Source: Candidatus Zixiibacteriota bacterium
GTDB lineage: Bacteria > Zixibacteria > MSB-5A5 > UBA10806 > 4484-95
NCBI GenBank assembly: GCA_029932605.1
Contig: JAOZPT010000041.1
Span: 1-23,376 of the forward strand
Direction: 5' to 3'
Length of the DNA: 23,376 nt
Under the pieces are notes generated by a model. It was not told where the DNA came from. It was given only the letters and a program-made list of their open reading frames with translations, and did not search any database. The stretch's first letter is position 1. Every line of letters starts with the position of its first letter. The translations under genes and the position numbers were made by a program. Shown one piece after another: positions 2,089 to 19,631 of the stretch.

Positions 2089-3477
2089 ATGAGAACTGGA
2101 AGAATGAATAGTATATTAAGAAATGAAACCCTTAGTTTTTATCTATGTTTAGTTTTTTTACCAATATTGATTTCTATAATAATTATATTGATAAATAAAC
2201 CGATCGTGAGCTTTGTTACTTTGGGAGTAGTAATATTTATTGTAATAACATTTATTAATTTTGATTTGTTGATTTATATTTTATTAGCATTATGGCCAAT
2301 AGTTAGTTATTATATTCCTAAAGAAAGCACAAAATATTTCTGGATAATTATTTGTTTGTTTTTTTTGATAATGTTATTATCAAAGTTAATGACAAATAGA
2401 CGGTTAAGGCTTCCGCCAAAAGAACTATTATATTTTTTTGGAGTTTTTTGGTTATTAATAATTTTTTCTGATGTTTATAATTTACAGAATATAAGTCTAA
2501 TAGATAACTTAAGATTAATTTTTTTTACTGTTCTTATATTTATATTCTATGATTGGAGTTTTAACAAACCTCCGTCAAGGATAATCTTATGTATACTATT
2601 TCCTTTAATAATTTCAATAATAATGGTGTTAGTAACTATATTAAAAAACTTTAGTTTAATGGGTTTTTTACAATTAACTTTTTTTAGATATAGTGCTTTT
2701 TTTGGTAATCCTAATAATTATGGCAATTATCTAAATTTTGTTATTCCATTGATATTTTCATTCTTGGTGATGAAGTATTATAAAAGGTATTATTATATAA
2801 TCTTGTTTATATTTATTTTGTCATTTTTAGCCTTGATAATATCAAACTCAAGAGCTGCTTATCTGGGAGTGGGCTCTTCGATTATTATATTATCTTTGCT
2901 GATTAAGAGGATAAGACTTCCTGTATTGATATTCCTTGGTTTACTAATATTTGTTTTTATTTATTCACCGTTTTTTCGACAAATAACAAATTTTATTTTA
3001 AGAATTGGAACTGATCCTACTTCTGGAAGAGCAGATATCTGGGCTTCAGCTATGAGTATATTAAGGAATAATTATATTTTCGGTATTGGCCTTGGAAATC
3101 AGACATGTTATTTGGTTGAAGAATTACCTACAGCTTTCTCAAAACACATTATGGGGAATATAATGGGAGCTCACAATTTATATTTGAGTAAGGCCCTTGA
3201 AATTGGTATATTAGCAATACCATTGTTTTTATATTTATTTTTCATCCTTGGAAGAATTATCATTTTTAATACAAGATCAAAGCTTCCTTTAGAACAAAGG
3301 GCTTTAAACTTTGCTGCGTTAGGAGTTTTAATATCCTTGTTTGTAAGGTCCTTCTTTGAGGGTTCCGTTCTGATTCAACGAGGTGGTATATTTCCAGTAT
3401 TTTATTCGTGGATTATTCTGTCTTGGCCAATGCAAATTCATCAGAAAATCAGGAAATACAAGTCTACTACCAAATAA
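2089..3477 (+). CDS. O-antigen ligase / Wzy_C-family polytopic membrane protein
   Basis: Many hydrophobic segments, with family motifs RYSAFFGNPN, SNSRAAYL, SGRADIW, GIGLGN and AHNLYL. The start could instead be the ATG at 2104. Confidence 0.85.
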   Translation: MRTGRMNSILRNETLSFYLCLVFLPILISIIIILINKPIVSFVTLGVVIFIVITFINFDLLIYILLALWPIVSYYIPKESTKYFWIIICLFFLIMLLSKLMTNRRLRLPPKELLYFFGVFWLLIIFSDVYNLQNISLIDNLRLIFFTVLIFIFYDWSFNKPPSRIILCILFPLIISIIMVLVTILKNFSLMGFLQLTFFRYSAFFGNPNNYGNYLNFVIPLIFSFLVMKYYKRYYYIILFIFILSFLALIISNSRAAYLGVGSSIIILSLLIKRIRLPVLIFLGLLIFVFIYSPFFRQITNFILRIGTDPTSGRADIWASAMSILRNNYIFGIGLGNQTCYLVEELPTAFSKHIMGNIMGAHNLYLSKALEIGILAIPLFLYLFFILGRIIIFNTRSKLPLEQRALNFAALGVLISLFVRSFFEGSVLIQRGGIFPVFYSWIILSWPMQIHQKIRKYKSTTK

Positions 3478-3632: not shown

Positions 3633-5018
3633 ATGAAACCGAAAAGAGTTGTCATAATGGGGGCGGCAGGCAGAGATTTCCATAACTTCAACTGTGTTTT
3701 CCGCGATAACGAAATGTATGAAGTCGTGGCTTTTACTGCTACCCAGATACCCGATATCGAGGGGCGCAAATATCCTTCCAGATTGGCGGGTAAGCTTTAC
3801 CCGAAGGGGATACCGATAGTAGCCGAGGAGGAATTACCTGTTTTAATCGACCAGTATGATGTCGAAGAAGTAGTATTTTCTTATTCCGATGTTTCTTATG
3901 AGCATGTTATGTCGTTGGGGGCGGTAGTTAATGCCTGTGGCGCTGATTTCAAGATGCTGGGTGCTGGAAAGACTATGTTGAAATCCAAAAAGCCGGTAGT
4001 GGCTATATGTGCCGTAAGGACAGGTTGCGGAAAATCGCAGACTACAAGAAGAGTCTGCCGGGTGCTAAAGAGTTTTGGTTTTAAGGTTATAGTTATTCGT
4101 CACCCGATGCCCTATGGAGACCTTACAAAACAGATTTGCCAGCGTTTCGCCAGGCTTTCGGACCTTGACAAGTTCAAATGCACTATCGAGGAGCGTGAAG
4201 AATATGAACCTCATATCAACAATGGGGTTATTGTGTATGCCGGTGTCGATTACGGTGTGATTCTCGGACGGGCTGAGAAAGAGGCTGATATCATAATCTG
4301 GGATGGCGGCAACAACGATTTGCCATTTTACCAACCGGATATTCACATTACCGTATTAGATCCTCATCGTCCCAGGCATGAGCTTACCTATTATCCGGGT
4401 GAGGCAAATCTTCTGATGGCAGATGTTGCCATCATTAACAAAGTTGAGACTGCGCCTTTAAAGGGGATTGAGGAAGTAAGGGAGTCGGTGAGAATGCTAA
4501 ATCCGGAGGCTGTGGTTATCGAGGCAGCCTCTCCGATTTTCGTTGATAATCCGGAGGTCATCACCGGCAAAAAAGTGTTGGTGGTTGAAGATGGTCCGAC
4601 AATCACTCATGGCGAGATGACCTATGGGGCAGGTGTGGTTGCGGCCAATAAATATGGTGCGGTCGAGCTGGTTGATCCACGACCATTTACCGTAGCCTCT
4701 ATAACAAAAACGTATGAAAAATATCCAGAGATAGGCGCTCTTCTTCCAGCTATGGGATATGGACAGAAGCAGGTTAAGGACCTTGAGACAACCATCAATA
4801 GAACAGATGCCGAGGCGGTTGTGATTGCTACACCTATTGACCTTCGAAGGCTGATTAATATTAAAAAACCGTCCACCCGTGTCAGGTATGAACTGCAGGA
4901 GATCGGATATCCCGATATTGAGGCGGTTTTGGTGGAATATTTCGGCTTAACAATAAAAGAATCTAAAACAACAGGCAAGAAAATTTCAAAGAGATCCAGA
5001 GCCGGAAAGCGCAGGTAG
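3633..5018 (+). CDS. arcE: COG2403 P-loop enzyme (cyclic 2,3-diphosphoglycerate synthetase-like), probable arginine synthetase ArcE
   Basis: N-terminal IMGAAGRDFHNFN...VVAFTATQIP, P-loop AVRTGCGKSQT, and RHPMPYG, TIEEREEYEPH, WDGGNND, VVEDGPT and LLPAMGY motifs. Directly upstream of carbamate kinase. The family call is firm; the ArcE activity is inferred. Confidence 0.75.
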   Translation: MKPKRVVIMGAAGRDFHNFNCVFRDNEMYEVVAFTATQIPDIEGRKYPSRLAGKLYPKGIPIVAEEELPVLIDQYDVEEVVFSYSDVSYEHVMSLGAVVNACGADFKMLGAGKTMLKSKKPVVAICAVRTGCGKSQTTRRVCRVLKSFGFKVIVIRHPMPYGDLTKQICQRFARLSDLDKFKCTIEEREEYEPHINNGVIVYAGVDYGVILGRAEKEADIIIWDGGNNDLPFYQPDIHITVLDPHRPRHELTYYPGEANLLMADVAIINKVETAPLKGIEEVRESVRMLNPEAVVIEAASPIFVDNPEVITGKKVLVVEDGPTITHGEMTYGAGVVAANKYGAVELVDPRPFTVASITKTYEKYPEIGALLPAMGYGQKQVKDLETTINRTDAEAVVIATPIDLRRLINIKKPSTRVRYELQEIGYPDIEAVLVEYFGLTIKESKTTGKKISKRSRAGKRR

Positions 5019-5220
5019 ACCCAAAAGCACTAATGACATGTTTAGTTTAAGCTGATGTCAAAGAGTATTTCGGTTGTTTAATCCGCCTTTTATGTTTAGA
5101 TATTTTTATTTAAAGTGATATTATATGATTAAAACGTTTTGTTTTTTAGTGCTTATTTATTAATATTTCGGTTTTAAGATAAGGCAAAATGAGAGAGAAA
5201 CGTTTTGAGGTGGTGAGATA

Positions 5221-6165
5221 ATGAAGAAGAAGACGGCCGTAGTAGCTTTAGGGGGTAATGCCATAACCGACAAGGACCGCGAAGATAATATACCTAATCA
5301 GTTTATTAACACAGAGATAAGCCTGGAGGGAATTATTAAGTTAATCGATGATGGTTACAATCTGGCGCTGACACATGGTAATGGACCCCAGGTGGGCAAT
5401 GCCGTTTTACGGGTAGAACTTGCCAGAGGTAAAGCTCCTGAATTGCCTATTTTTATCTGTGTGGCTGACCTTCAGGGCGGGATGGGGTATATGATAGAGC
5501 AGGTTCTCAGGAACAAACTCAATAAACTTGGTATAAGCAGAGACGTTGCTGTGGTGGTAACTCAGGTGATGGTGGATGAAAATGATGAGGATTTTGCCGA
5601 CCCCACCAAATTTATTGGCCAATTTTATGAGCCTGAGCAAGCTGAATCATTGAAAAAAGAGTTTGGCTGGAAAATGAAACCATTTCCCGGTGACCAAAGG
5701 TTAAGGCGGGTTGTTGCCTCGCCAAAACCACTATGTCTTATAGAAAAAAATGTCATAAAACGTCTTGTTGAAGCTGGGGTTGTTGTAATTGCCGCTGGTG
5801 GTGGAGGTATACCTGTTATTAAACATCAGGGAGTTCTGAAAGGTATTGATGCTGTTATAGACAAAGACAGAGCAGCTTCTGTTATGGCGCGCGATATTGA
5901 GGCTGAGTTGCTGGTTATCTTAACATCCGTTGAAAAAGTAGCTTTAAATTACAGTAAACCCACCCAGAGGGATCTTGATAAAATGACTTTAGCTGAAGCC
6001 GAGAGATATCTTTCTGAGGGTCATTTTCCACCTGGTAGTATGGGACCCAAAATTGAAGCTGCTGTCGATTTTTTAAAAGCTGGCGGTAGCAAAGTAATAA
6101 TAAGTTCTATTGAGAAGGCTTATGAGGCTGTTAACGGTAGAGCTGGAACCACCATTGTTGCCTGA
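5221..6165 (+). CDS. arcC: Carbamate kinase
   Basis: Motifs VVALGGNA, THGNGPQVG, PTKFIG, RRVVASPKP, GGGGIPV, AVIDKD and GSMGPKIEAA. RBS GAGGTG at 5207-5212. Confidence 0.96.
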   Translation: MKKKTAVVALGGNAITDKDREDNIPNQFINTEISLEGIIKLIDDGYNLALTHGNGPQVGNAVLRVELARGKAPELPIFICVADLQGGMGYMIEQVLRNKLNKLGISRDVAVVVTQVMVDENDEDFADPTKFIGQFYEPEQAESLKKEFGWKMKPFPGDQRLRRVVASPKPLCLIEKNVIKRLVEAGVVVIAAGGGGIPVIKHQGVLKGIDAVIDKDRAASVMARDIEAELLVILTSVEKVALNYSKPTQRDLDKMTLAEAERYLSEGHFPPGSMGPKIEAAVDFLKAGGSKVIISSIEKAYEAVNGRAGTTIVA

Positions 6166-6201
6166 TGGGTAGCATTCATTGAAAGGATATTCGGGTATTG
6201 T

Positions 6202-7590
6202 ATGATATCGTCCCATAACGGAGACATATACAATTTGGCAGTATTGGAAAAACTTGCTGATACTGTGAGTTCTGAGGGTGGGAGGATCTATGAGGTGGGC
6301 GGTTCAGTAAGAGACCGGCTTCTTAATATCATGCAACCCAAGGACTTGGATTTTATAATTTGTGGCATTCCTTTTAGTGACCTTAAAAAAATATTGCAAA
6401 AATTTGGGAATATAAATCTCGTTGGTCAAACATTTGGAGTAATAAAGTTTAAACCTTTTAAATCTGAATATGCTTATGATATTTCTCTTCCCCGTAAAGA
6501 GCGTTCCATTGGTGAAAAACATCGCGATTTCGATATTGATTTTGATCCGGATTTACCGGTAGAGGAGGACCTTGGTCGGCGCGATTTTACGATAAACGCA
6601 ATGGCTAAGGAGTTTCCAGATGGAGATTTGGTTGACCCTTATGGTGGTAAAAATGACCTCAAGAAAAGGATATTAAGAGCGGTTTCGGATTCGAGTTTTA
6701 TTGATGACCCCCTACGCATGATTCGTGGTGTACAGTTTATGGCACGGTTTAATCTTTCGGTTGATAGGAAAACATTTGAAGCGATGGAAAAAAATGCTCA
6801 CCTTATTAAAACAGTCTCTCCCGAAAGAATTGCTGAGGAATTGAATAAGTTATTGGAAGAAGCAAAGAAACCTTCAGCTGGTTTCTTATTGATGAGGAAT
6901 ACAGGTTTACTTGAATATATTTTACCGGAACTTGGCAAAACCGTTGGTGTGGAACAACCCGGTGGTTATCACAAATGGGATGTTTTCGAGCACACGTTAA
7001 GTACGATCGATAATTCACCGCCGAAGTTGGTGGTAAGGTTGGCAGCCTTGTTGCACGATATCGGTAAACCCCAAACCAGGGAAATAATTGATAAAGGGGC
7101 TACGTTTTATGGCCATGACAAACTCGGCCAGAGTATGGCTGAGAATATTTTAAAACGGTTGCGTTACTCTAATGAGACAATTAAACAGGTTGCAACACTG
7201 GTTGGCAAGCACATGTTCAGTCAAAAGGCTGGTGAGAAGGGTATCAGGCGTTTGCTCAACAAAGTTGGAGTCGATTTGGTTTTTGACCTGATTGCTCTTC
7301 GTAAGGCCGATACGATAGCTCAGGGTATGGGTCAGGATACAACGGGTATCGATGAGTTTAGGCTTAAGGTGGAGCAGGAAATCGCCAAGAGCCGGGCTTT
7401 CACGATAAGGGATTTAGCCTTAAATGGCAATGAATTAAAGCAACACTTTGACCTTGATGAGGGACCTTTAATTGGTCATGTCTTAAGATATCTTTTAGCG
7501 AAAGTTCTTGATGATCCGCAAAAAAATAGTAAAGAGAAATTGTTGTTGTTAAGTGCGGATTTTTTAGAAAAAAGGCATCTTGACATTTGA
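6202..7590 (+). CDS. cca: CCA tRNA nucleotidyltransferase (class II) with HD domain
   Basis: VGGSVRD...DLDF, intact loop RKERSIGEKHRDF, EEDLGRRDFTINAMA, DDPLRMIR, SPERIAEE, and HD domain HKWDVFEHT...LLHDIGKP. Confidence 0.9.
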   Translation: MISSHNGDIYNLAVLEKLADTVSSEGGRIYEVGGSVRDRLLNIMQPKDLDFIICGIPFSDLKKILQKFGNINLVGQTFGVIKFKPFKSEYAYDISLPRKERSIGEKHRDFDIDFDPDLPVEEDLGRRDFTINAMAKEFPDGDLVDPYGGKNDLKKRILRAVSDSSFIDDPLRMIRGVQFMARFNLSVDRKTFEAMEKNAHLIKTVSPERIAEELNKLLEEAKKPSAGFLLMRNTGLLEYILPELGKTVGVEQPGGYHKWDVFEHTLSTIDNSPPKLVVRLAALLHDIGKPQTREIIDKGATFYGHDKLGQSMAENILKRLRYSNETIKQVATLVGKHMFSQKAGEKGIRRLLNKVGVDLVFDLIALRKADTIAQGMGQDTTGIDEFRLKVEQEIAKSRAFTIRDLALNGNELKQHFDLDEGPLIGHVLRYLLAKVLDDPQKNSKEKLLLLSADFLEKRHLDI

Positions 7591-7608
7591 GAATTTTTTC
7601 ACTTAATT
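7580..7608 (+). promoter_or_regulatory. Possible promoter for the suc-kor cluster, overlapping the end of cca
   Basis: Perfect TTGACA at 7580-7585 but only a weak -10 (CTTAAT/TTAATT at about 7602-7608). RBS GGAGG at 7621-7625. Confidence 0.4.
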
Positions 7609-7629
7609 AGTTTTTTATATGGAGGAAAC

Positions 7630-8769
7630 ATGAAAATACACGAATACCAGGCTAAAGAGATTTTTGGCAAATATGGTTTGCCAATCCCGAAAGGCGAGGT
7701 TGTTACCACACCGGATGAAGCTCGCAATATTGCAGTTCGATATGAAAAACCGGTGATGATTAAGGCTCAGGTGCATGTTGGAGGACGTGGAAAAGCTGGT
7801 GGCATTAAATATTGCAAGGAGCCGGATGATGCCTTTTTTGCTGCCCAGGAAATACTGGGAATGGATATTAAGGGATTAATAGTTAAGAAAGTATTGGTTA
7901 CAGAGGCAGTTGACATTAAATCCGAGGCTTATGTTGGAGTTATCGTTGACAGAGTAACTAAAAGAAATGTTATCATGGTCTCGCCAGCTGGCGGTATAGA
8001 TATCGAGGAGGTAGCCGCTAAAACCCCTGAGAAGATTATGAAGCTGGGTGTTGACCCATTACTTGGACTGCTTCCTTACGAGGCGTTAAAGTTAGCCCGA
8101 TTCGTTTATCCTGATATTAAGATTGCCCGTTCGGCCGGAGGGGTAATAAGGAAATTATACGATGCTTTTGTTCATAGTGATGCTTCGTTGGCTGAGATTA
8201 ATCCACTTGTGTTAAACAACCAGGATGACCTTGTTGCCTTAGATGCAAAAATCAATCTTGACGATAGCGCTCTTTTCAGACATCCCGATTATGAAAATCT
8301 CAGGGACCTTGATGCCGAGGACCCAGCGGAAATGGAGGCAAAACGCAATGACCTTTCCTATGTGAAACTTAACGGTAACATCGGTTGTTGCGTTAACGGT
8401 GCCGGTCTGGCTATGGCCACCATGGACTTAGTGAAACATTTCGGAGGTGAACCGGCCAATTTCCTTGATATCGGCGGTTCTTCATCACCCGAGAAGGTCC
8501 TTGCGGCAATGAAAATTATCTTAAACGACCCCAATGTGGTGGTTATTCTGTTTAATATATTTGGTGGTATTACCCGTTGCGATGATGTCGCTAATGGTAT
8601 GGTCTGGGCTGTGGAAAAACTTAACCCACGTGTACCGATAGTTGTGCGCTTAACCGGTACAAATGAGGATAAAGCAAAAAAAATTCTCGAAAAACTGGAT
8701 TTATCCGCCACCAGCTCAATGGAAGATGTGGTTAAGATGGCAGTCAATGAGGCCAGGTCGGTGGTATAA
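7630..8769 (+). CDS. sucC: Succinyl-CoA synthetase beta subunit
   Basis: Motifs MKIHEYQAK, KAQVHVGGRGKAGG, EINPL, DAKINLDD, NGAGLAMATMD, PANFLDIGG and NIFGGITRCD. Confidence 0.96.
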   Translation: MKIHEYQAKEIFGKYGLPIPKGEVVTTPDEARNIAVRYEKPVMIKAQVHVGGRGKAGGIKYCKEPDDAFFAAQEILGMDIKGLIVKKVLVTEAVDIKSEAYVGVIVDRVTKRNVIMVSPAGGIDIEEVAAKTPEKIMKLGVDPLLGLLPYEALKLARFVYPDIKIARSAGGVIRKLYDAFVHSDASLAEINPLVLNNQDDLVALDAKINLDDSALFRHPDYENLRDLDAEDPAEMEAKRNDLSYVKLNGNIGCCVNGAGLAMATMDLVKHFGGEPANFLDIGGSSSPEKVLAAMKIILNDPNVVVILFNIFGGITRCDDVANGMVWAVEKLNPRVPIVVRLTGTNEDKAKKILEKLDLSATSSMEDVVKMAVNEARSVV

Positions 8770-8864
8770 TTGTGTATCATCGTTTGGTGATGGTTAATGA
8801 TGATATCGGTAATTTTGAAGGTTAGGGCGACTTACATAAAGATGATATAAAGAGAAGGTGTCTT

Positions 8865-9962
8865 ATGGCAATTTATGTTGATAAAAAAACCAGAGTGATC
8901 GTACAGGGCATTACTGGCCGTGATGGTTCGTTTCACAGCCGGCAGATGTTGGATTATGGGACAAATATTGTTGCTGGAGTCACACCAGGAAAAGGGGGTT
9001 CAGAGATATATGGAGTGCCGGTTTTTGATAGTATGGCTGAGGCTGTTGAAAAGACAAAAGCTAATACATCGATAATTTTTGTGCCTCCCATGTTTGCGGT
9101 TGATGCTATCTTCGAGGCGGCTCGCTCGGGGATATCACTTATTGTTTGCATAAGTGAAGGTATTCCTGCTATTGATATGGTTAAGGTGTATAATTATCTG
9201 AAGGAAAAAGGGGTAAGATTAATTGGACCTAATTGTCCGGGAATTATTTCACCGGGGATGTCGAAGGTTGGAATATTACCCGCCCAGATTTTTGCTAAAG
9301 GCCCAATCGGTGTTGTTTCACGTTCCGGTACTTTGACCTATGAAATCGTGCATAATCTAACGATTAAAGGGCTTGGGCAGTCAACATGTATCGGTATCGG
9401 TGGCGATCCTATTATCGGAACAAATTTTATTGATTGTCTGGAAGCTTTTGAAAACGACCCCGCAACCAAGGGGATAGTCCTGATAGGTGAGATAGGTGGT
9501 TCTGATGAAGAGATGGCGGCTGAATATATTAAAAGGAACGTAACGAAACCTGTAGTAGGCTTTATCGCCGGGCAGACTGCTCCGCCGGGTAAAAGGATGG
9601 GACATGCTGGAGCTATTATATCCGGAGCCTCAGGATTAGCCGAGGATAAGATCAGAGCTTTCAACGAGGTTGGAATACCGGTTGCCGAGATACCCTCGCA
9701 GATTTCTGATTTAATGGCTGAGAAGCTTGCTGAATATCAAAAGAAGTTGGCCAGGAAGAAAGCGATAGTAAAATCGAAAAAGAAAACTAAAAAAACGGCT
9801 AAAAAGAAAACAGCTAAGAAGGTGGTTAAAAAAAAGGCAAAAAAAGCCATTAAAAGAGTTACTAGAAAAACTGCAAAGAAAAAAACTGTTTCTAGAAAAT
9901 TGGTCAGGAAAAGAGCTGAGAGGAAAACTACAGCACTAAGAAAGTCGGGTAGAAGAAAATAG
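8865..9962 (+). CDS. sucD: Succinyl-CoA synthetase alpha subunit with a ~73-aa Lys/Arg-rich C-terminal extension
   Basis: Motifs [35 protein letters not shown] and the phospho-His motif RMGHAGA. The basic tail spans 9741-9959. Confidence 0.96.
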
Positions 9963-9964
9963 AT

Positions 9965-10189
9965 ATGGCAGAGAAGGTGACTAAGCGTTACAAACCAAGG
10001 CCTGATCCAGTTGTCATATATAAAAAATGGTGTAAAGCTTGCGGAATATGTGTTGAGCTCTGTCCTAAGAAGGTTTTTGATACTGACAGGGATGGTTATC
10101 CGGTTGTTGCCCGGGGTTTGGATTGTACCCAGTGTTCGATTTGCTGGATTCACTGCCCGGATTTTGCCATAACATCCAAGGAGATATGA
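9965..10189 (+). CDS. korD: 2-oxoacid:ferredoxin oxidoreductase delta subunit (2x[4Fe-4S])
   Basis: CKACGICVELCP and CTQCSICWIHCP motifs; directly precedes the alpha subunit. Confidence 0.88.
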   Translation: MAEKVTKRYKPRPDPVVIYKKWCKACGICVELCPKKVFDTDRDGYPVVARGLDCTQCSICWIHCPDFAITSKEI

Positions 10190-10196
10190 ATAGAAA

Positions 10197-11339
10197 ATGA
10201 CAGACGTGAGCGTTCCGAAACTTATCCAGGGAAATCAGGCATGTTCTTATGGGGCGATAGCGGCAGGTTGCCGGTTTTTCGCCGGTTATCCTATAACACC
10301 CTCCACTGAAATTGCCGAGACAATGGCTTTAGAACTTCCTAAATATGGCGGAAAATTCATTCAGATGGAGGATGAGATAGCCTCAATTTCAGCAATAATC
10401 GGGGCGTCTATTGCCGGCTCCAAGGCGATGACTGCAACCTCGGGCCCCGGTTTTTCCCTTATGCAGGAAAACCTTGGCTATGCGTATATGGCCGAGGTGC
10501 CATGTGTCGTTATAAATGTTATGCGAGGAGGTCCCTCTACCGGTTTGCCCACCAAGGTATCTCAGGCGGATGTGATGCAGGCTAATTGGGGGGCTCATGG
10601 TGATTATTATCCCATCGTTCTTAGTCCATCATCGGTCAGCGAGTGTTTTGATATAACAGTTCGTGCATTTAACCTTTCGGAAAGATATCGTTGTCCGGTG
10701 ATAATTCTTTCAGATGAAGTTATAGGCCATATGAGAGAGATGGTTAGCCTGCCGGATTTTTCCAGTGTGGAGATGATTGAGCGTCAGCGACCGAATGTTC
10801 CACCGGAATGGTATAAGCATTTTCTTATCACCCATGATTTCACCTCGCCTATGGCGAGTTTCGGCGAGGGTTACCGTTTTCATTTAACCGGTCTTACCCA
10901 CGATGAGTTTGGTTTACCGACCTCAGATAATATCGAGATTGCGAAAAAACTTGGTAAACTTAAGCTGAAGATTGAAAGACACTTAAGTGATATAAGCCAG
11001 GTTAATACCTATAAAATTGAAGATGCCCATATTGTAATTTTAGCATACGGTTCGGTTGCCAGAGCGGCTCGCCAGGCGGTTTTGCTTTCACGCAAAAAAC
11101 GGTTTAAGGCGGGCCTGTTTCAACCAATTACTCTATGGCCATTTCCCGACAGGCAATTACGACAGATATCAAGGAAGGCCGATCTGATAGTGGTAGCAGA
11201 GTTAAACCAGGGGCAGATCATAAATGAGGTTAGAAGGGTATGTAAATCACATTCTAAGGTTGTTGGCTTGAACAGATACGATGGTGAATTGATAACTCCC
11301 GAACAAATTCTTGAAAAGATAAAAGAGGAGCACAGGTAA
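10197..11339 (+). CDS. korA: 2-oxoglutarate (2-oxoacid):ferredoxin oxidoreductase alpha subunit
   Basis: Motifs FAGYPITPSTE, QMEDE, TATSGPGFSLMQE and RGGPSTGLPT. The 2-oxoglutarate substrate is inferred from the sucCD/icd context. Confidence 0.9.
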   Translation: MTDVSVPKLIQGNQACSYGAIAAGCRFFAGYPITPSTEIAETMALELPKYGGKFIQMEDEIASISAIIGASIAGSKAMTATSGPGFSLMQENLGYAYMAEVPCVVINVMRGGPSTGLPTKVSQADVMQANWGAHGDYYPIVLSPSSVSECFDITVRAFNLSERYRCPVIILSDEVIGHMREMVSLPDFSSVEMIERQRPNVPPEWYKHFLITHDFTSPMASFGEGYRFHLTGLTHDEFGLPTSDNIEIAKKLGKLKLKIERHLSDISQVNTYKIEDAHIVILAYGSVARAARQAVLLSRKKRFKAGLFQPITLWPFPDRQLRQISRKADLIVVAELNQGQIINEVRRVCKSHSKVVGLNRYDGELITPEQILEKIKEEHR

Positions 11340-12190
11340 TGCAGAAATCAGATGTAACGCATCAGTACCTCAGGCATACCATGGAATTTCCCAATGTCTG
11401 GTGTCCCGGTTGTGGTATCGGTATAGTGCTGGGTGCTTTCATACGGGCGGTCGATCGTCTGCATATTTCAAAAGATGATCTGGCTTTGGTTTCGGGGATA
11501 GGTTGTACAGCCAGGATACCGGCTTACGTCGATTTCAATACTCTTCATACAACTCATGGCAGACCCATCGCATTTGCTACCGGTGTTAAGTTAGCCAATC
11601 CTAAGTTAAAGGTTGTGGTGATTTCAGGTGACGGTGATATTCTGGCTATCGGAGGTAACCATTTTATCCATGCTTGCCGACGCAACATCGACATAACAGT
11701 GGTTGTGGTAAATAATTACATATATGGCATGACTGGTGGGCAGTATTCACCAACGACTCCGATGGGTAAAAGAGCATCGACAGCGCCATATCTAACAGTT
11801 GAACCACCTTTTGATACCTGCAATTTGGCAATCAGTTCAGGGGCAACGTTTGTTGCCAGAAGCACTGTTTATCATGCCACGCAGCTTTCAAGTTTGATTG
11901 AGAAGGCGCTTGTCAAGAAGGGTTTTTCGGTTGTTGAGGCTATGTCTAATTGCCATACCCAGTATGGTAGACTTAACCGCGAGGGAACAGCGGTGCGGAT
12001 GATTCAAGCCTTTAAAAATGTGGCGGTACCTGTGTCAACCGCCGCTAAGCTCTCACCCGAAAAGTTAGAGGGGAAGATAGTAATAGGCGTTTTGCACGAC
12101 ATAGAAAGACCTGAATATATTGAGCATTACCAGAAAATTATAGACAGGTTACAATTACCCAAGATGGCAGATAAAGAGGAAAAAGAATAG
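11339..12190 (+). CDS. korB: 2-oxoglutarate (2-oxoacid):ferredoxin oxidoreductase beta subunit (TPP-binding)
   Basis: Motifs WCPGCG, SGIGC, HTTHGR, GDGD...NN and YGMTGGQYSPT. TAATG stop/start overlap with korA. Confidence 0.9.
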   Translation: MQKSDVTHQYLRHTMEFPNVWCPGCGIGIVLGAFIRAVDRLHISKDDLALVSGIGCTARIPAYVDFNTLHTTHGRPIAFATGVKLANPKLKVVVISGDGDILAIGGNHFIHACRRNIDITVVVVNNYIYGMTGGQYSPTTPMGKRASTAPYLTVEPPFDTCNLAISSGATFVARSTVYHATQLSSLIEKALVKKGFSVVEAMSNCHTQYGRLNREGTAVRMIQAFKNVAVPVSTAAKLSPEKLEGKIVIGVLHDIERPEYIEHYQKIIDRLQLPKMADKEEKE

Positions 12191-12261
12191 GTGATATACG
12201 ATCTGATATTAGTAGAGATTTATTTTTTGAATGATATTCGTAGTTCCATTATGGTGATAGA

Positions 12262-12834
12262 ATGAAGAAGAAGAAGACTGAAGGCAGATATGAGATAAGG
12301 CTTTCCGGTTCGGGGGGTCAGGGTTTGGTTCTTGCGGGTGTTATGCTGGCGGAGGCTGTGGGTGTCTATGAGGGCAAGAACGTTACCCAGACACAAAGCT
12401 ACGGTCCTGAAGCGCGTGGTGGTACATCGCGGTCGGACCTGGTTATTTCGGATAGTGAAATATATTACCCGAAACCATCAAGCCTGGATCTGTTGTTATC
12501 GTTGACCCAGGACGCTTGCAATAGGTATTATCCTCATCTTAAGGATGATGGGATATTGATTGTAGATTCGGATATCGTAAGGCAGATTCCTCCGGTTAGT
12601 AACGTTTATGCATTTCCATTTACTCATACTGCCAAGGAGAAAATAGGAACCACACTGGTTGCCAATGTCATGTCTGCCGCCTCGATTGTCATCATTTCAG
12701 GAATTTGCAAGACTGATTCGTTTTTAAAGGCGGTTTTAAGCCGTGCCCCTCGAGGTACCGAGTCGAAGAATGAAACAGCGTGCAAAATCGGTTTTGAGAT
12801 GAGCAGAAAAGCGTTAAAAAAAGCAAAGGGATAG
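12262..12834 (+). CDS. korC: 2-oxoacid:ferredoxin oxidoreductase gamma subunit
   Basis: Motifs IRLSGSGGQG and QSYGPEARGG. Confidence 0.9.
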   Translation: MKKKKTEGRYEIRLSGSGGQGLVLAGVMLAEAVGVYEGKNVTQTQSYGPEARGGTSRSDLVISDSEIYYPKPSSLDLLLSLTQDACNRYYPHLKDDGILIVDSDIVRQIPPVSNVYAFPFTHTAKEKIGTTLVANVMSAASIVIISGICKTDSFLKAVLSRAPRGTESKNETACKIGFEMSRKALKKAKG

Positions 12835-13236
12835 ATGGGACGAACGCTTATAATCATCAAGCCTGATGCTGTCGAACGAGACCTGATAGGCGAGATTATA
12901 TCCCGCTTTGAGAAGGCTCGTTTTATAGTTGCTGCATTGAAGATGGTCAAGTTAGATTACGACAGCGCTCGGCGTTTCTATGCAGTCCATGAAGGTAAAC
13001 CGTTTTTGGATGAGCTATGCAAGTATATGTCATCCGGACCGGTGATAACGATGGTTGTTAAATCTGACGGTGACACAGTGGAAAAAGCGAGGCAACTTAT
13101 CGGGGTAACAGATCCCGGTAAAGCTGCTGCTGGCACCATAAGGCATGATTTGGGTGTAAGTCTTACCAAAAATTCAGTTCATGCCTCCGATTCGCCGCAG
13201 AACGCTGAACAGGAAATAAATTTTTTCTTTAGTTGA
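12835..13236 (+). CDS. ndk: Nucleoside diphosphate kinase
   Basis: Motifs RTLIIIKPDAV, FYAVHEGKPF, GTIR and NSVHASDS (phospho-His). Confidence 0.96.
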   Translation: MGRTLIIIKPDAVERDLIGEIISRFEKARFIVAALKMVKLDYDSARRFYAVHEGKPFLDELCKYMSSGPVITMVVKSDGDTVEKARQLIGVTDPGKAAAGTIRHDLGVSLTKNSVHASDSPQNAEQEINFFFS

Positions 13237-14477
13237 TGGAGATTCGACTACCGTTTGGAGGGAAAGACAGGCAAGTAGATATCGATAGCCTTCCCGGAGC
13301 TTTAAGGGTTGGAGGAATATTTCGTTGTCAATTCCCCTCGCCTTTAAGTCAAAAAAGTATGGAAGATAAAATATGGGAAGGTCTTAACCATTACAAAAAG
13401 CTCTTTGACAATAAAAAAATTTTAACTGTTGTTAACGATGGTTACCGCCGGACTCCGACAGATCTGCTATTGCCGATGATCTGGGATTACGTGGAGGGTG
13501 GAGAATTTATCGTCGCCACGGGTACACACAGAAACCCATCGGGGGATGAGTTAAGGAAGATATTTGGCCCATTGCTCGATGAAGTTGAACCGAAATTGCA
13601 TATTCATAACTGTTATGATGAGACATCTTTGGTAGATATTGGCAAAACCCGATTGGGCACTCCGGTTAGATTAAACAGGGAAGTTATTGAAGCTGATGTG
13701 ATTATTGCTATTAACTCGGTTGAACCACATTTTCTTGCCGGTTTTTCTGGTGGCCGCAAATCTATTGTACCGGGACTTGCCTCATTTGATACAGTGCAGG
13801 CCAATCATCAGTTTGCCAAAGATATAAATTCCTCGTCGTTATATTTGGAAAATAATCCTCTTCATCTCGACCTTGAGGATGCAATGAGTTTTCTTGGCGA
13901 TAAAACAATTCTTGGAATTCAGTGCGTAACCGACCGGGCTGGCAGGATAATAGGCTTATTTGTGGGAACTTTAAATGAGGCATTTTTAAAAGCCTGTGAC
14001 TGTGCCAAGAAGTTTTATGTAGTTGAAGTTCCCAGGAAATTTGATATTGTCATTGCAAACTGTGAACCACCTCTTGATGTTAACCTTTACCAACTTCAGA
14101 AAGCACAGGAACATGGTAGCAGGATGGTAAAGGATGGCGGGGTGTTAATCGTTATGGGTGCCTGCAAAGAAGGTGTTGGTTCGGAGTATTTTATGAAACT
14201 GGTGGAATTTTATCCCACCCCAAAGGAGGTGTTGGAAAAGGGTATAAACGACAATTCGTTCGGGATACACAAGTTAATTAAGACCGCCCGTCAGCTGAAG
14301 TGTTTTAAAATTTACTATGTAACAATGCTCGAAGGATATTTGGTTAGAAAAGTATATTTTAAGTCTTTTAATGATGTCAATGATGCATTAAAATCAGCTT
14401 TGAGTGAAATCGGCGATAACGTTGAATTAGCTTTTTTAGAAGATGCTGGTTATACAGTACCCGAAGTAAAACATTAA
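13236..14477 (+). CDS. larA: LarA-family nickel-pincer-nucleotide-dependent 2-hydroxyacid racemase/epimerase
   Basis: Motifs NDGYRRTP, ATGTHR, EPHFLAGFSGGRKS, ANH and NLYQLQKA. The ATG at 13236 overlaps the ndk stop (TGATG). Substrate uncertain. Confidence 0.88.
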   Translation: MEIRLPFGGKDRQVDIDSLPGALRVGGIFRCQFPSPLSQKSMEDKIWEGLNHYKKLFDNKKILTVVNDGYRRTPTDLLLPMIWDYVEGGEFIVATGTHRNPSGDELRKIFGPLLDEVEPKLHIHNCYDETSLVDIGKTRLGTPVRLNREVIEADVIIAINSVEPHFLAGFSGGRKSIVPGLASFDTVQANHQFAKDINSSSLYLENNPLHLDLEDAMSFLGDKTILGIQCVTDRAGRIIGLFVGTLNEAFLKACDCAKKFYVVEVPRKFDIVIANCEPPLDVNLYQLQKAQEHGSRMVKDGGVLIVMGACKEGVGSEYFMKLVEFYPTPKEVLEKGINDNSFGIHKLIKTARQLKCFKIYYVTMLEGYLVRKVYFKSFNDVNDALKSALSEIGDNVELAFLEDAGYTVPEVKH

Positions 14478-14492
14478 AAAAAGGAGTTAAAA

Positions 14493-15419
14493 TTGAGAAA
14501 GAAAGTAACAGTTATAGGTGCAGGGCATGTTGGTGAATGTACAGCCATGTATTTAGCCCAGAAAAATATCTGTGATATTGTTGTTATCGACATTATCGAG
14601 GATATGCCGATGGGGAAGACTTTGGATTTATCCCAGGCCGGACCGGTTGTTGGTTATGATGTTAAGCTTGAAGGGTCTAACGATTTTGAGGCGATGAGTG
14701 GTTCGGATATAGTTGTAATGACAGCTGGTTTTCCCAGAAAGCCTGGTATGAGTCGTGAGGACCTCATTAATAAAAACGCTGAAATAGTTGGTCCAGTATC
14801 GGAGAAAGTTAAAAAATACGCTCCAGATGCTATGCTGATTATGGTGACCAATCCCCTGGATATAATGACATACCATGCTTGGAAAATCACTGGTTTTCCG
14901 ACTGAAAGAGTGTTCGGTCAGGCTGGGATACTGGATTCCATACGGTTCAGAACCTTTGTGGCCTGGGAACTAGGTGTTTCTTTGTGTGATGTTCAGGCTA
15001 TGGTGCTGGGTGGTCATGGCGACACGATGGTACCACTCCCTGCCTATACTACCGTATCAGGTATTCCGATAACCGAACTTATTACCGAAGACAAGATTAA
15101 AGCGATATCTGATAGGACTCGCAATGGTGGTGGTGAGATCGTGAAATTGTTAAAGACAGGTTCGGCTTATTATGCACCGGCCGCAGCAGTTGTAGAAATG
15201 GTTGACGCAGTATTAAACGATCGTAAAAGGGTGTTTCCTGTCTCTGCCTTTGTGGATGGTTCTTATGGTATTAAAGGTATTTATATAGGAGTTCCTGTAA
15301 TTTTGGGTTCCGGCGGCGTAGAAAAAATATTTGAGTTAAAACTTAATCCTGATGACATGGCCTCTTTGCAAAATTCGGCAAAAACTTACAAAGAATGGTT
15401 AGGAGTGCTGGGTTATTAG
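14493..15419 (+). CDS. mdh: Malate dehydrogenase (LDH-like fold)
   Basis: GAGHVG; AGFPRKPGMSR with Arg at the specificity position (LDH has Gln); VTNPLD; LGGHGD. TTG start preceded by AAGGAG. Confidence 0.93.
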   Translation: MRKKVTVIGAGHVGECTAMYLAQKNICDIVVIDIIEDMPMGKTLDLSQAGPVVGYDVKLEGSNDFEAMSGSDIVVMTAGFPRKPGMSREDLINKNAEIVGPVSEKVKKYAPDAMLIMVTNPLDIMTYHAWKITGFPTERVFGQAGILDSIRFRTFVAWELGVSLCDVQAMVLGGHGDTMVPLPAYTTVSGIPITELITEDKIKAISDRTRNGGGEIVKLLKTGSAYYAPAAAVVEMVDAVLNDRKRVFPVSAFVDGSYGIKGIYIGVPVILGSGGVEKIFELKLNPDDMASLQNSAKTYKEWLGVLGY

Positions 15420-15472
15420 AACTGATATTTTGTAAAGATGTAACAGTTAAAGTTTTTGACAGTGGAGGTCCT

Positions 15473-17182
15473 ATGGGGAAAACCATAGCTGAAAAAATAT
15501 TTTGTGAGCATGTGGGTAGGGATGTGAAGGCTGGAGAGATAGTGGTTGCTGATATCGACGTCAGCCTTGTTCAAGATGGCACGGGACCTCTGGCTGTTCG
15601 CCAGCTTGAGAAACTCGAATTGGAGAAGCTGGCAAAGCCGGAGCGAACAGTGCTTTTCCTTGACCATTCTGCTCCGGCATCACGTAAGGAATTGGCAAAC
15701 GACCATGATACCTTACGCAATTTCGCAAAAAAAACCGGAGCCCGGCTTTCGGAAGTTGGAATGGGGATTTGTCATACCGTAATCAACGAAATCTATGTCA
15801 ATCCCGGTGATATTTTAATCGGAGCTGATAGCCATACATGCACAGGCGGAGCTTTATGCGCTTTCTCAACTGGTATGGGTTCAACAGATGTGGCCATTGG
15901 AATGGCGTTGGGTAAGACCTGGTTTCGAGTACCTGAAACTTTCAAGGTTTTTGTGACCGGTGAATTTCCTGTTGGCGTATTTGCCAAGGACCTTATTTTG
16001 CATTTAATCGGTCTTATTGGCGCTGATGGAGCAACTTATAAGGCTTTGGAGTTCTGTGGCCCTGCAATTGAGAATATGAGCATGGAATCACGTTTCACTA
16101 TTTCGAATATGGCGGTGGAGGCAGGTGCAAAAGCCGGATTGATTGCATCGGATGAAACGACAAAAAAATATTTGGAGAAAATGGGACGTGGCTCTAAATG
16201 GCGTCCTATCGCGGCGGATGATGATGCTGAATATGAACGGGTTATCGAGATCGATGTTTCATATCTTAAACCGATGGTTTCGTTTCCACATACGGTAGAT
16301 AATACTCGAACAATCGAAGAGGCTGCTGGTGTTGTGATAAATCAGGTTTTTTTAGGGACCTGCACAAATTCCCGTCTTGAGGACTGGGATGTCGTTAGCC
16401 GGATAGTGAAAGGTAAAAGGAAGGCACCGGGTATTCGGTTTATTGCGGTTCCTGGTTCAAAATATGTCGAAAAACAGGTGATGGATGCGGGCTATTATCA
16501 GATACTTGCTGAGTTTGGGGCGATGTTTTTGCCTCCTGGATGTGGTCCCTGTGTAGGCGTCCATGGTGGGGTACCGGCTGATGGAGAAAAATCGCTTACA
16601 ACAATGAACCGCAATTTCCGTGGCCGAATGGGAAATCCCAAAGGTGAAATCTATTTGGCATCACCTGCGACTGTTGCCGCCACCGCTATCGAAGGGGTTA
16701 TTGCAGATCCCCGTAAGTATGCTCGAGAGTTAACATCTAAATCATTTCCGACAATTGTAAACACTGAGGCTTTGAAGAGGGCTACTGTAATGGCTATGGA
16801 ATCGATTGAAAAAGTAGCCACTGAAACTGCCAGGAAGCTTGGCCCACGAGTTAAAGAGACCTCTGAAATTGTTGAAAAAAAGACCAGAGGAGTAATCAGA
16901 AAATATGAGCCTAAGGCCCAAAAAGCGGCAGTGGATCTTGAGAAAACGATTAGGACATTAGCAAAGGATGCCTCCAAGGCTATCAAGGAGGTCTTAACCG
17001 GTAAACCTGCTGTAAAAACTTCTCGAACCGTGAAGAAAAAAGTTGGAAAGAAATCTAAGACTGGAGTAGTTACTAAGAAGACTGTGAAGAAAAAAGCCAC
17101 TAAGAAGGTTTCAAAAAAAGGCGTCAAAAAAACAGCAAGGGGAAAAACTGTTAAAACCGTTTCTAAAAAGAGGAGGAGATAA
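15473..17182 (+). CDS. LeuC/HacA-family [4Fe-4S] hydro-lyase large subunit (candidate aconitase) with a 153-aa C-terminal extension
   Basis: Motifs MGKTIAEKIF, QDGTGP, LDH, GADSHT, GTCTN, PGCGPC, NRNFRGRMG and ASPA...DPR. GGAGG at 15464-15468 supports a start at 15473 rather than 15395. Confidence 0.9.
   Translation: MGKTIAEKIFCEHVGRDVKAGEIVVADIDVSLVQDGTGPLAVRQLEKLELEKLAKPERTVLFLDHSAPASRKELANDHDTLRNFAKKTGARLSEVGMGICHTVINEIYVNPGDILIGADSHTCTGGALCAFSTGMGSTDVAIGMALGKTWFRVPETFKVFVTGEFPVGVFAKDLILHLIGLIGADGATYKALEFCGPAIENMSMESRFTISNMAVEAGAKAGLIASDETTKKYLEKMGRGSKWRPIAADDDAEYERVIEIDVSYLKPMVSFPHTVDNTRTIEEAAGVVINQVFLGTCTNSRLEDWDVVSRIVKGKRKAPGIRFIAVPGSKYVEKQVMDAGYYQILAEFGAMFLPPGCGPCVGVHGGVPADGEKSLTTMNRNFRGRMGNPKGEIYLASPATVAATAIEGVIADPRKYARELTSKSFPTIVNTEALKRATVMAMESIEKVATETARKLGPRVKETSEIVEKKTRGVIRKYEPKAQKAAVDLEKTIRTLAKDASKAIKEVLTGKPAVKTSRTVKKKVGKKSKTGVVTKKTVKKKATKKVSKKGVKKTARGKTVKTVSKKRRR
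16802..16999 (+). repeat. Three degenerate 22-aa helical repeats in the LeuC-like extension
   Basis: SIEKVATETARKLGPRVKETSE / IVEKKTRGVIRKYEPKAQKAAV / DLEKTIRTLAKDASKAIKEVLT. The hydrophobic-E-K is in register in all three, and RKxxP is in register in the first two. Confidence 0.65.
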
Positions 17183-17185
17183 GCC

Positions 17186-17686
17186 ATGGCATTATGTGGA
17201 AAAGCGTTCAAGTTTGGCGATGATATCTCCACTGACCATATCGCTCCGGGAAGGTATTTCCACTTAAGATCGAATTTGCCTGAACTGGCCAAGCATGTTC
17301 TTGAGGATGCTGATGAGACATTTGCCACAAGGGTGAAACCGGGAGATTTTGTCGTTGGTGGTAAAAATTTTGGTCTTGGCTCTTCCCGTGAACATGCACC
17401 AACCATTATTAAGCTGGCGGGCGTTGGAGCGGTTCTGGCCAAGTCGTTTGCCCGGATATTTTTTCGTAATGCTATCAATGTCGGCTTGCCGGTTTTGATC
17501 TGTGATACGGACCGTATTTGCGATGGTGATGAACTTGAGGTTGACCTTGAGGCCGGTTTAATTAAGGATAAAACAAACGATATCGAGCTTTCGTTTACGC
17601 CCCTTCCAAAGACTATGGTGACTATTCTCGAGGATGGTGGGCTTGTGGCTCATATTCAGAAACACGGGGATTTCAAACTCGATTAA
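17186..17686 (+). CDS. LeuD/HacB-family hydro-lyase small subunit
   Basis: Motifs FGDDISTDHIAPGRY, NFGLGSSREHA and SFARIFFRNAINVGL. Confidence 0.92.
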   Translation: MALCGKAFKFGDDISTDHIAPGRYFHLRSNLPELAKHVLEDADETFATRVKPGDFVVGGKNFGLGSSREHAPTIIKLAGVGAVLAKSFARIFFRNAINVGLPVLICDTDRICDGDELEVDLEAGLIKDKTNDIELSFTPLPKTMVTILEDGGLVAHIQKHGDFKLD

Positions 17687-17784
17687 GATGTTTGTGCAGT
17701 GCAAGAATCATTTATATGGCATTGAAAAATATGAAGAGAGCCATAATAGCAAGCTATGTGTAAGACAAATTGAGGATATTTTAA

Positions 17785-18386: not shown

Positions 18387-19631
18387 ATGGCAAAATATAA
18401 GATGATTACACCCCCGACAAATGGCACACCGATAACGATCGTGGATAAAAAACTTAAAGTGCCGGACAACCCTATAATCCCGGTTATCGAGGGAGATGGA
18501 ATTGGTAGTGATATCATGAAGGCCTGTCGGCGTGTGGTTGATGCTGCTATAGAGAAAACTTATAATGGTAGAAAACAGATTGTCTGGTTTGATATATATG
18601 CCGGTGATGCAGCTTTGAAAATGTATGGCGAGGTTTTGCCACGAGATACATTTAAGGCAATAAAAGAGTTTATTGTTGCTCTCAAAGGTCCTCTTACAAC
18701 TCCTGTAGGGGGAGGTTATCGCTCGTTAAATGTCACTTTGCGACAGGCGCTAAACCTTTATGCCTGCGTAAGGCCGGTACGTTATTTCCAGGGTGTGCCC
18801 TCACCGGTAAAACATCCAGAGAAACTCAATGTGGTCATTTTCCGTGAGAACACCGAGGATGTTTATGCTGGTATTGAGTGGCCCAAAGGGACCAAGGAGG
18901 TTAAGAAAGTAATTGATTTTTTGAACAAAAGAATGAAGACCAAAATCCGTGCTGATTCTGGCATTGGCATAAAACCAATATCTGTAACAGGTACACAGCG
19001 TCTTGTCAGCAAAGCTATCCGCTATGCATTGGATAACGGGCGCAGGTCTGTTACCCTTGTCCATAAGGGTAACATTATGAAGTATACAGAGGGGGCTTTT
19101 CGGGATTGGGGATATAAAATCGCTGCTAAAAGATTCCCTGATGAAACCATTTCAGAAGCCGAAATCTGGGACAAATATAATGGCAAGTGTCCTGATGGTA
19201 AGGTTATTATCAAGGACCGTATTGCCGATTCAATGTTCCAGCAGATTCTCACACGTTCGGATGAGTATGATATTATAGCTACTCCTAATTTAAATGGCGA
19301 TTACCTCTCGGATGCATGTGCTGCCCAGGTCGGTGGGCTGGGTATGGCTCCTGGAGGTAATATCGGTGACTATGTGGGGCTTTTCGAGGCGACTCATGGA
19401 ACTGCTCCAAAATATGCTGGTAAAGATATGGTCAACCCGAGCTCACTTATACTTTCAGCGGTGATGATGCTTAATTATCTTGGCTGGAAGGAGGCTGGTT
19501 TGGCTATCGAGAAGGCCATTGAAAAAACCATCCTGCAAAAGACAGTGACGTATGATCTCGAGCGACTTATGGAGGGTGCAACTAAGGTCTCAACCTCGCA
19601 GTATGCCACGCATATCATCGAGAACCTGTGA
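18387..19631 (+). CDS. icd: NADP-dependent isocitrate dehydrogenase (E. coli type)
   Basis: Motifs [38 protein letters not shown] and [13 protein letters not shown] determinants in HGTAPKYAG and TYDLER. Confidence 0.96.

Follow-up and report, generated by a model that had tools for sequence, protein, structure and literature searches.

The stretch of DNA analysed here (the window, 23,376 nucleotides of contig JAOZPT010000041.1, assembly GCA_029932605.1, Candidatus Zixiibacteriota bacterium) carries a Zixibacteria tricarboxylic acid (TCA) cycle cluster in which two enzyme subunits, the α subunit of succinyl-CoA synthetase (SCS), SucD, and the large subunit of an aconitase-family hydro-lyase, end in long polycationic H1-like tails, while a third protein, a putative arginine synthetase resembling ArcE, ends in a short one. 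Our results show that these tails are a real, selected and class-wide feature. H1-like tails are already known on DNA-processing and granule proteins, and what stands out is their presence on a fixed set of central enzymes. To judge from their sequences, they may well act as sequence-independent electrostatic tethers to nucleoid DNA and/or ribosomal RNA, a reading to which we give slightly more credence than doubt. The tailed proteins of the window are the following (lengths in amino acids, aa; K/R, lysine or arginine).

3633..5018, + strand: gene of the ArcE-like protein (putative arginine synthetase), 461 aa, with no Pfam or NCBIfam family over cut-off
4956..5015, + strand: short basic C-terminal tail of the ArcE-like protein, 10 K/R in 20 aa
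8865..9962, + strand: sucD, SCS α subunit, 365 aa with the core at 1-289 (NF004230 and TIGR01019 over cut-off)
9741..9959, + strand: H1-like K/R/A/T/V tail of SucD, 40 K/R in 73 aa with one acidic residue (from translation, charge and codon counts)
15473..17182, + strand: large subunit of the two-subunit aconitase-family hydro-lyase, 569 aa (NF001614, TIGR01343 and TIGR02086 over cut-off)
16721..17002, + strand: conserved, amphipathic linker of that subunit with two predicted helices (from 11/3 periodicity, alignment and AlphaFold)
17003..17179, + strand: H1-like K/T/V tail of that subunit, 28 K/R in 59 aa with zero acidic residues, predicted disordered (from translation and AlphaFold confidence)

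Translation of the three tail segments reproduced exactly the residue counts reported in an earlier note on this DNA, with a stop codon after each and the endings that it had given (SGRRK, SKKRRR and AGKRR for SucD, the large subunit and the ArcE-like protein, respectively). Its description of the large subunit stood as regards the tail, but the protein starts at ATG 15473, the extension covers 153 aa and a helical linker of about 94 aa had been overlooked. The SucD and aconitase tails are spanned without gaps by contigs of other studies (X6 record 29, 9598-10585, and X2 record 8, 16610-18000, respectively), for which no indels are listed; therefore, these tails are not an assembly error. SucD itself scores 451 against cut-offs of 336 for NF004230 and 353 for TIGR01019, profiles of 291 and 286 positions, both covered in full by the 365 aa of this protein. 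The net charge rises from −4 to +35 when the tail is added to SucD, and from −5 to +31 in the case of the aconitase large subunit. Among the 2134 proteins predicted with a simple purpose-made gene caller in the genome of the window (label G000; 2.53 Mb, 99.96% complete), the SucD and aconitase tails rank second and third by polycation score and the ArcE tail, ordinary in size, 29th. Strongly basic segments are C-terminal in 21 of the 1979 G000 proteins of at least 100 aa, N-terminal in 13 and mid-protein in 4; about 10 of the 34 proteins with terminal segments are ribosomal (named by eye, S1 by Pfam). Three tailed proteins among the 19 genes of the window correspond to P ~0.001, a post hoc value.

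The conservation of the tails follows the individual subunit. Among the best-scoring 29 of 60 relatives, 28 SucD loci reach a stop codon, and all 28 end in a basic extension of 3-115 aa (at least 34 aa in 24 of them). The aconitase large subunit bears a basic extension in 28/28 complete orthologues, and a basic C-end is shared by 105 of its 120 best database homologues (77 among the top 78 and 28 among the next 42). ArcE extensions in relatives cover 5-30 aa. The cluster genes of the fetched loci, some of which come from Gemmatimonadota, were further scored with a fixed test (best 15-residue net charge of at least +6 within the last 30 aa), which was passed by SucD in 73/92 cases, by the aconitase large subunit in 28/28 and by ArcE in 37/67. 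The proteins of the window that serve as untagged comparisons are these.

7630..8769, + strand: sucC, SCS β subunit, untagged partner of SucD (NF001913 over cut-off)
9965..15419, + strand: korD, korA, korB, korG, ndk, larA-like racemase and mdh, untagged internal controls (assigned by Pfam/NCBIfam)
17186..17686, + strand: hydro-lyase small subunit, untagged partner (TIGR02087 over cut-off)
18387..19631, + strand: NADP isocitrate dehydrogenase (IDH), tail-less here, with a basic core (isoelectric point, pI, 9.2; TIGR00183 over cut-off)

None of their orthologues passed: SucC 0/96, small subunit 0/25, KorA 0/60, KorB 0/44, KorD 0/62, KorG 0/41, NDK 0/65, MDH 0/55, LarA-like 0/21 and IDH 0/4; for the remaining neighbours the counts were 0/65 for the CCA enzyme and 1/80 for carbamate kinase (ArcC). 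The restriction of the tag to one subunit per complex, as claimed in the earlier note, thus holds well beyond this genome, and the conservation in orthologues which it had proposed to check is borne out, since the tails are kept across the class and absent from paralogues: neither SucD2 nor the second LeuC-like protein of G000 has one. The second sucC/sucD pair (L283, G000:C78:7280-10437) has a 332-aa gene between its two members. The second LeuC-like protein (L284:279-1877, G000:C53:44575-46176, − strand; 533 aa) carries an extra N-terminal 117 aa resembling two helix-turn-helix repeats, and aconitase-family proteins of this type, with a possible DNA-binding head, are of similar length in many relatives.

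Homology searches with a tail alone were uninformative (itself and one weak match in 5 genomes), and codon patterns served in their place. Across 74 distinct tails of SucD (4096 codons), we counted 1724 Lys, 137 AGR-Arg, 19 Glu, 4 Asp and 4 aromatic codons. Glu and AGR-Arg codons each lie one transition away from Lys, and Glu is nevertheless 7-fold rarer than Arg (19 vs 137). The final residue is K or R in 72/74 distinct tails, and no sequence motif was found in the tails beyond composition and this basic last residue. Synonymous choice in the tail tracks the core of the gene (rho 0.64 for the AAG share and 0.59 for four-fold GC) over 78 rows that include some genomes twice and one run-on frame, at a locus GC of 0.39-0.73; the corresponding P values are overstated because kin are not independent. 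Tail length is independent of GC, and tails remain at 72-74% GC. The tail sequence turns over while its charge is selected, at the protein level.

Concerning the identity of the hydro-lyase, the large subunit scores 552 against a cut-off of 385 for NF001614 and remains under cut-off for LEU2 and HacA_Meth. An assignment as LeuC (3-isopropylmalate dehydratase) was rejected, the scores being 454 against 611 for TIGR02083 and 252 against 560 for TIGR00170, with mdh and idh as flanking genes. The predicted structure matches MJ0499 of Methanocaldococcus (PDB 4kp1; Foldseek E-value 3e-52, template-modeling score 0.92 on the target). MJ0499 and MJ1003 (PDB 4kp1, 4kp2) share the core fold at 40-43% identity; they differ in that they lack the extension (~420 aa) and in that the Zixibacteria context points to citrate/isocitrate. 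No protein of AcnA or AcnB length was found in G000, where the only other aconitase-family proteins are two (533 and 660 aa). From the mdh/idh context and the presence of just these two other members, the two-subunit hydro-lyase is likely the TCA aconitase rather than LeuC. The ArcE label, which would imply orthology to TK2200, is putative: the protein shows a weak likeness to cyclic 2,3-diphosphoglycerate synthetase (E-value 7.9e-7) and its gene precedes carbamate kinase (arcC), in agreement with the description of ArcE, for which both this likeness and adjacency to arcC are described (PMC11032458).

Between core and tail, the aconitase of this order contains a well-aligned linker of ~94 residues with the invariant prolines P457 and P479, 22 residues apart. 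Its hydrophobic moment peaks at 97-98 degrees in 13/13 aligned sequences, a value reached by 0/1000 shuffles of each. In the AlphaFold model built from 102 sequences, which replaced one from 13 sequences (predicted local distance difference test, pLDDT, 51), the core is confident, the helices 431-455 and 462-508 are moderate (linker pLDDT 56-75) and the tail at 513-569 is predicted disordered (pLDDT <50, ~32). The 11/3 periodicity and the 22-residue proline spacing are the pattern of 11-mer repeats and exchangeable apolipoproteins. Apolipoprotein-type helices that bind lipid have this periodicity, as do coiled coils with an 11-residue repeat. The linker gave no Pfam match, and PDB matches to apolipophorin-III and ApoA-IV were not significant (E-values 2.9 and 4.8). 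Homologues of the linker were found in just 4 close relatives in the protein collection and nowhere else in G000 or the examined part of G049, a genome of a distant family, while the best Atlas match (0.78) is unnamed; these blanks are no proof of novelty. Lengthened linkers occur in L047 (a 26-residue duplication) and in P0039, P0058 and P0065 (proteins of 642-678 aa), suggesting that the helix is expandable by repeats.

The tagged set extends beyond the window. In G000, N-terminal tags were found on pyruvate phosphate dikinase (PPDK), ribosomal protein S1, a SWIB protein, two DUF2934 proteins, a small Cys-rich protein and MvhD, and further C-terminal ones on inositol-phosphate synthase (named by eye), Lon and L17. 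The N-tail of PPDK is present in 28/30 and 26/30 loci of two overlapping class samples, both of Zixibacteria, with an additional C-tail in 4/30 and 6/30; neither was found in 30 phylum loci centred on a Gemmatimonadales genome. Inositol-phosphate synthase passed the basic-tail test in 24/28 cases and Lon in 18/29. The KKxxK units of the enzyme tails recur on the SWIB proteins and in a series of free peptides (20-128 aa in many relatives, 34 aa in G000), and the free peptides consist of the repeat alone, mostly with an MPAKK start and a basic end. HU proteins are tail-less in the 9 loci examined of 10, which indicates no HupB-type fusion. The earlier note had described a C-terminal tag on metabolic enzymes, and both limits have to be given up: PPDK, S1 and SWIB proteins are tagged at the N-terminus, some PPDKs at both ends, and Lon, S1, L17, SWIB proteins and free peptides are not metabolic enzymes. 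The proteome scan that it had suggested yielded a small set which recurs in a distant family, but no single common function. Indeed, the comparison of 401 orthologue pairs between G000 and G049 gave 5 proteins with a tag in G049; all but one of them, namely S16, SucD, aconitase and PPDK, also bear a tag in G000, where 10 of the orthologues do (odds ratio 260, P 1e-6, unbiased from the G049 side only, as SucD and aconitase had been picked beforehand). Tags on ArcE, Lon, MvhD and three others were found in G000 only, and one in G049 only. Of the 2.12 Mb of G049, 1.2 Mb (57%) was examined as separate 20-kb pieces, which is why boundary genes and inositol-phosphate synthase are lacking from this part.

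Several small genes related to this repeat were observed. An unannotated 34-aa gene made only of KKATK repeats, with a strong Shine-Dalgarno sequence before its start, lies at L278:555-659 (G000:C1:14254-14358, + strand). Upstream of it are the gene of a likely sigma-54 activator and one of 131 aa, and the protein collection does not contain it. In L227, two free H1-like peptide genes stand in tandem. Small proteins whose N-terminus is H1-like and whose C-terminus resembles a zinc finger (CxxCxGxG; L275:712-1047 and L214:5471-5932) have no family match and are encoded directly downstream of the TCA cluster in G013, G011 and G010. Peptides of ~60 aa joining an MPAKK repeat to a Cys/His motif (RC..TK.GKRCK...C..H; L236:2139-2369, L473 and L474) gave no Pfam match, and an apparent relative lies at G000:C68:84265-84387. 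Finally, L177:1321-1941 (G048) combines the H1-like repeat with a glycogen-binding domain of the AMPK type (PF16561) and might tether glycogen to the nucleoid.

The tails are not confined to one lineage, as the earlier note had supposed. A quickly built SucD tree places four tailed rows from Gemmatimonadales in a five-row clade (support 96) within tail-less Gemmatimonadota, and its starred branches require at least two tail changes; from this placement, the Gemmatimonadales clade gained its SucD tail separately. The C-terminal parts of the NCBIfam models PRK13808 (adenylate kinase) and PRK14900 (valine-tRNA ligase) match the K-rich repeats of Zixibacteria, and tail fusions therefore exist in other lineages. 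These two are likewise housekeeping enzymes with a K-rich C-terminal part, although they are single enzymes of other groups and the models state no role for the tail. Among the papers listed in literature searches that exclude subscription journals, none dealt with tailed SucD, aconitase or PPDK, or with lysine-rich proteins of Zixibacteria; the supplements of PMC6821194, where its low-complexity regions are tabulated, may include such proteins.

Among known systems, Ppk1 of Caulobacter crescentus is the closest tested precedent, a metabolic enzyme whose short and highly basic tail is a localisation signal needed for its position and has no counterpart in the E. coli orthologue (PMC3806658). 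It differs in being one enzyme with a 22-aa tail, targeted to polyphosphate granules, whereas the Zixibacteria tails occur on several unrelated enzymes, reach 150 aa and come from genomes in which polyphosphate kinase (PPK) was not found. In MLDS of Rhodococcus and PhaF of Pseudomonas, a surface-binding helix is followed by a K/A-rich tail that binds DNA in the former (PAKKA motifs; PMC5504291) and RNA in the latter (KPAA region; PMC12818456). An amphipathic helix before a basic repeat tail is found in the aconitase only; in contrast to these proline-rich granule proteins, the Zixibacteria tails are built of KK(T/V/A)(A/V/T)K, sit on enzymes and come from genomes in which PhaC_N was not found. 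Hc2 (PF07382, NF038052), the Burkholderia-type NF038053 and AlgP share with them lysine pentamer repeats with A, T or V and without acidic or aromatic residues, and the tails have the H1-like composition, namely K-rich, acid-free, low-complexity repeats predicted to be disordered. The window tails gave no match to the Hc2 or NF038053 profiles, H1-like profile scores stayed under cut-off (21.6 against 40 for a free peptide of L227 and 27.7 against 80 for the SWIB tail), as did all related matches, and the Zixibacteria repeat differs in being fused to housekeeping enzymes. Low-complexity lysine tails also add non-specific DNA binding to actinobacterial Ku, topoisomerase I and HupB (PMC3553676; PMC6821194), which are DNA-processing proteins only. 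According to PMC6821194, such regions are under-represented among metabolic proteins in surveys of eukaryotes, and its text names neither succinyl-CoA synthetase nor aconitase.

Tethering to nucleic acid is supported by the subunit specificity of the tails, the recurrence of the same set in a distant family, the exclusion of Glu, the occurrence at either terminus and the presence of the repeat on SWIB proteins and free peptides. Because the tails shift SucD to +35 and the aconitase subunit to +31, some nucleic-acid binding is expected on physical grounds; in E. coli, cationic GFPs bind ribosomes and are slowed up to 100-fold (PMC5726854). One tagged subunit per oligomer would place several tails on each complex, raising avidity and slowing diffusion, so that SCS, aconitase, PPDK, ArcE, inositol-phosphate synthase and Lon might gather around the nucleoid or on ribosomes. 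A possible benefit is the production of ATP or GTP and the consumption of pyrophosphate beside transcription and translation, which would suit SCS, PPDK and ArcE, or abundant enzymes could double as polycations coating the nucleoid. In this order, the 11/3 helix of aconitase might attach to a lipid surface or, alternatively, assemble as a coiled coil and so raise the number of tails. Several observations weigh against tethering. The nucleoside triphosphate (NTP) and pyrophosphate logic fails for aconitase and inositol-phosphate synthase, which make no NTP, and for NDK and carbamate kinase, which do make it and are untagged; the tagged set has no single function, and the tail data do not separate DNA from RNA as the partner. 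ArcE and Lon fall below the test in G049, the overlap with that genome is unbiased from one side only, tails cover 3 to about 150 aa across orthologues, and some orthologues are nearly tail-less (SucD in L027, ArcE in L085 and L088, PPDK in L381). Sporadic tails occur on unrelated proteins (an M42 peptidase, a DNA methylase, one IDH and a glycogen-binding protein), and 49% of G000 proteins have a pI >8, so that this lineage tolerates basic proteins. A broader scheme, which we regard as speculative and rather improbable, is an H1 address code used throughout the phylum Zixibacteria, in which free peptides and H1-SWIB proteins would organise the nucleoid, the repeat would draw SCS, aconitase, PPDK, ArcE, inositol-phosphate synthase and Lon into a nucleoid metabolic compartment, and the aconitase helix would bridge it to a lipid surface in one order.

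Alternatively, the tails could be the address of a dedicated condensate or metabolon, co-assembling the enzymes, SWIB proteins and free peptides with nucleic acid and possibly switched by acylation. This is unlikely, although the common repeat and the single tag per oligomer would suit it, as would the similar AlgP tail, for which a tethering of granules to the chromosome is discussed (PMC9239181), and a sirtuin found in 5/5 genomes, though also in 10/14 controls. Like-charged tails have no mutual attraction unless scaffolded, and no motif beyond composition and a basic last residue is available to them. Moreover, the consecutive TCA steps between aconitase and SCS (IDH and KorABDG), as well as MDH, are untagged, and the metabolon imagined in the earlier note is therefore not indicated for the TCA cycle. 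It is somewhat more unlikely that the tails are near-neutral extensions, lengthened by slippage-prone A-rich repeats and selected only against harmful residues. The fast change in length and sequence, the sporadic tails and the basic proteome would fit, but the same orthologues are tagged across families while their neighbours are clean (0 in 44-96 cases), Glu is excluded 7-fold relative to Arg, tails persist at 72-74% GC and the Gemmatimonadales tail was gained independently, all of which has already weakened this explanation.

Anchoring to membranes, with the tails on anionic phospholipids and the aconitase helix entering a membrane or a lipid inclusion in the manner of MLDS or PhaF, is quite improbable for the set. 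The strong 11/3 periodicity with prolines 22 apart and the MLDS-like layout of helix and basic tail (PMC5504291) speak for it, as does inositol-phosphate synthase, which feeds lipid synthesis and whose gene adjoins a likely lipid gene (read by eye). Yet aromatic and leucine residues, which basic segments that bind membranes usually contain, are missing from the tails (4 aromatic codons among the 4096), the apolipoprotein matches of the linker were not significant, the linker is limited to one order, and PhaC_N was not found in 5/5 genomes by a search for this synthase class alone, whose control gave a signal. A search for WS/DGAT gave 0/5 genomes, its control being silent as well. Lysine-rich disordered regions do bind polyphosphate (PMC12345225; PMC3806658), and the earlier note had listed it as a partner, but granule targeting like that of Caulobacter Ppk1 or AlgP is very improbable: PPK1 is over cut-off in 11/81 class genomes and 0/11 of this order (control positive in 7/14), and PPK2 in 1/5 genomes searched and 0/4 of this order. 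Since neither kinase was found in the genomes of this order that were searched, polyphosphate is unlikely as a general partner. Equally remote is a role unrelated to localisation, as a solubility tag, a proteolysis signal or a sink for reactive acyl groups; SCS handles succinyl-CoA and K or R ends 72/74 SucD tails, but acyl-CoA plays no part in the work of aconitase, PPDK, ArcE, inositol-phosphate synthase or S1, some of the tags are N-terminal and the repeat also forms free peptides.

With respect to the setting, metagenomes sharing at least half of the words of the window come from vents and marine sediment, with no RNA dataset among the records listed, and the closest titled SucD relatives are mostly from Zixibacteria. 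Every long gene of the window lies on the + strand, in the order ArcE-like, carbamate kinase, CCA enzyme, sucC, sucD, korDABG, ndk, LarA-like racemase, mdh, two-subunit hydro-lyase, LiaF-like and idh; a promoter and terminator scan was at chance level (42 vs 37.7 and 20 vs 14.6). The LarA-like gene (13233-14477), adjoining mdh within the TCA cluster, encodes a nickel-pincer racemase whose best match, the malate racemase family, is under cut-off, and an O-antigen ligase-like gene (2089-3477) has a GC of 23% compared with ~42% in its surroundings.

A conserved set of central enzymes that bear such tails on selected subunits, at one end or the other, would suggest that bacteria can place enzymes by charge in a cheap and general way. 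This bears on how far electrostatics organise the bacterial cytoplasm, where ribosome binding is expected to put cationic proteins at a disadvantage. As the tails are short and portable, the idea is approachable in E. coli, without culturing the source organism.

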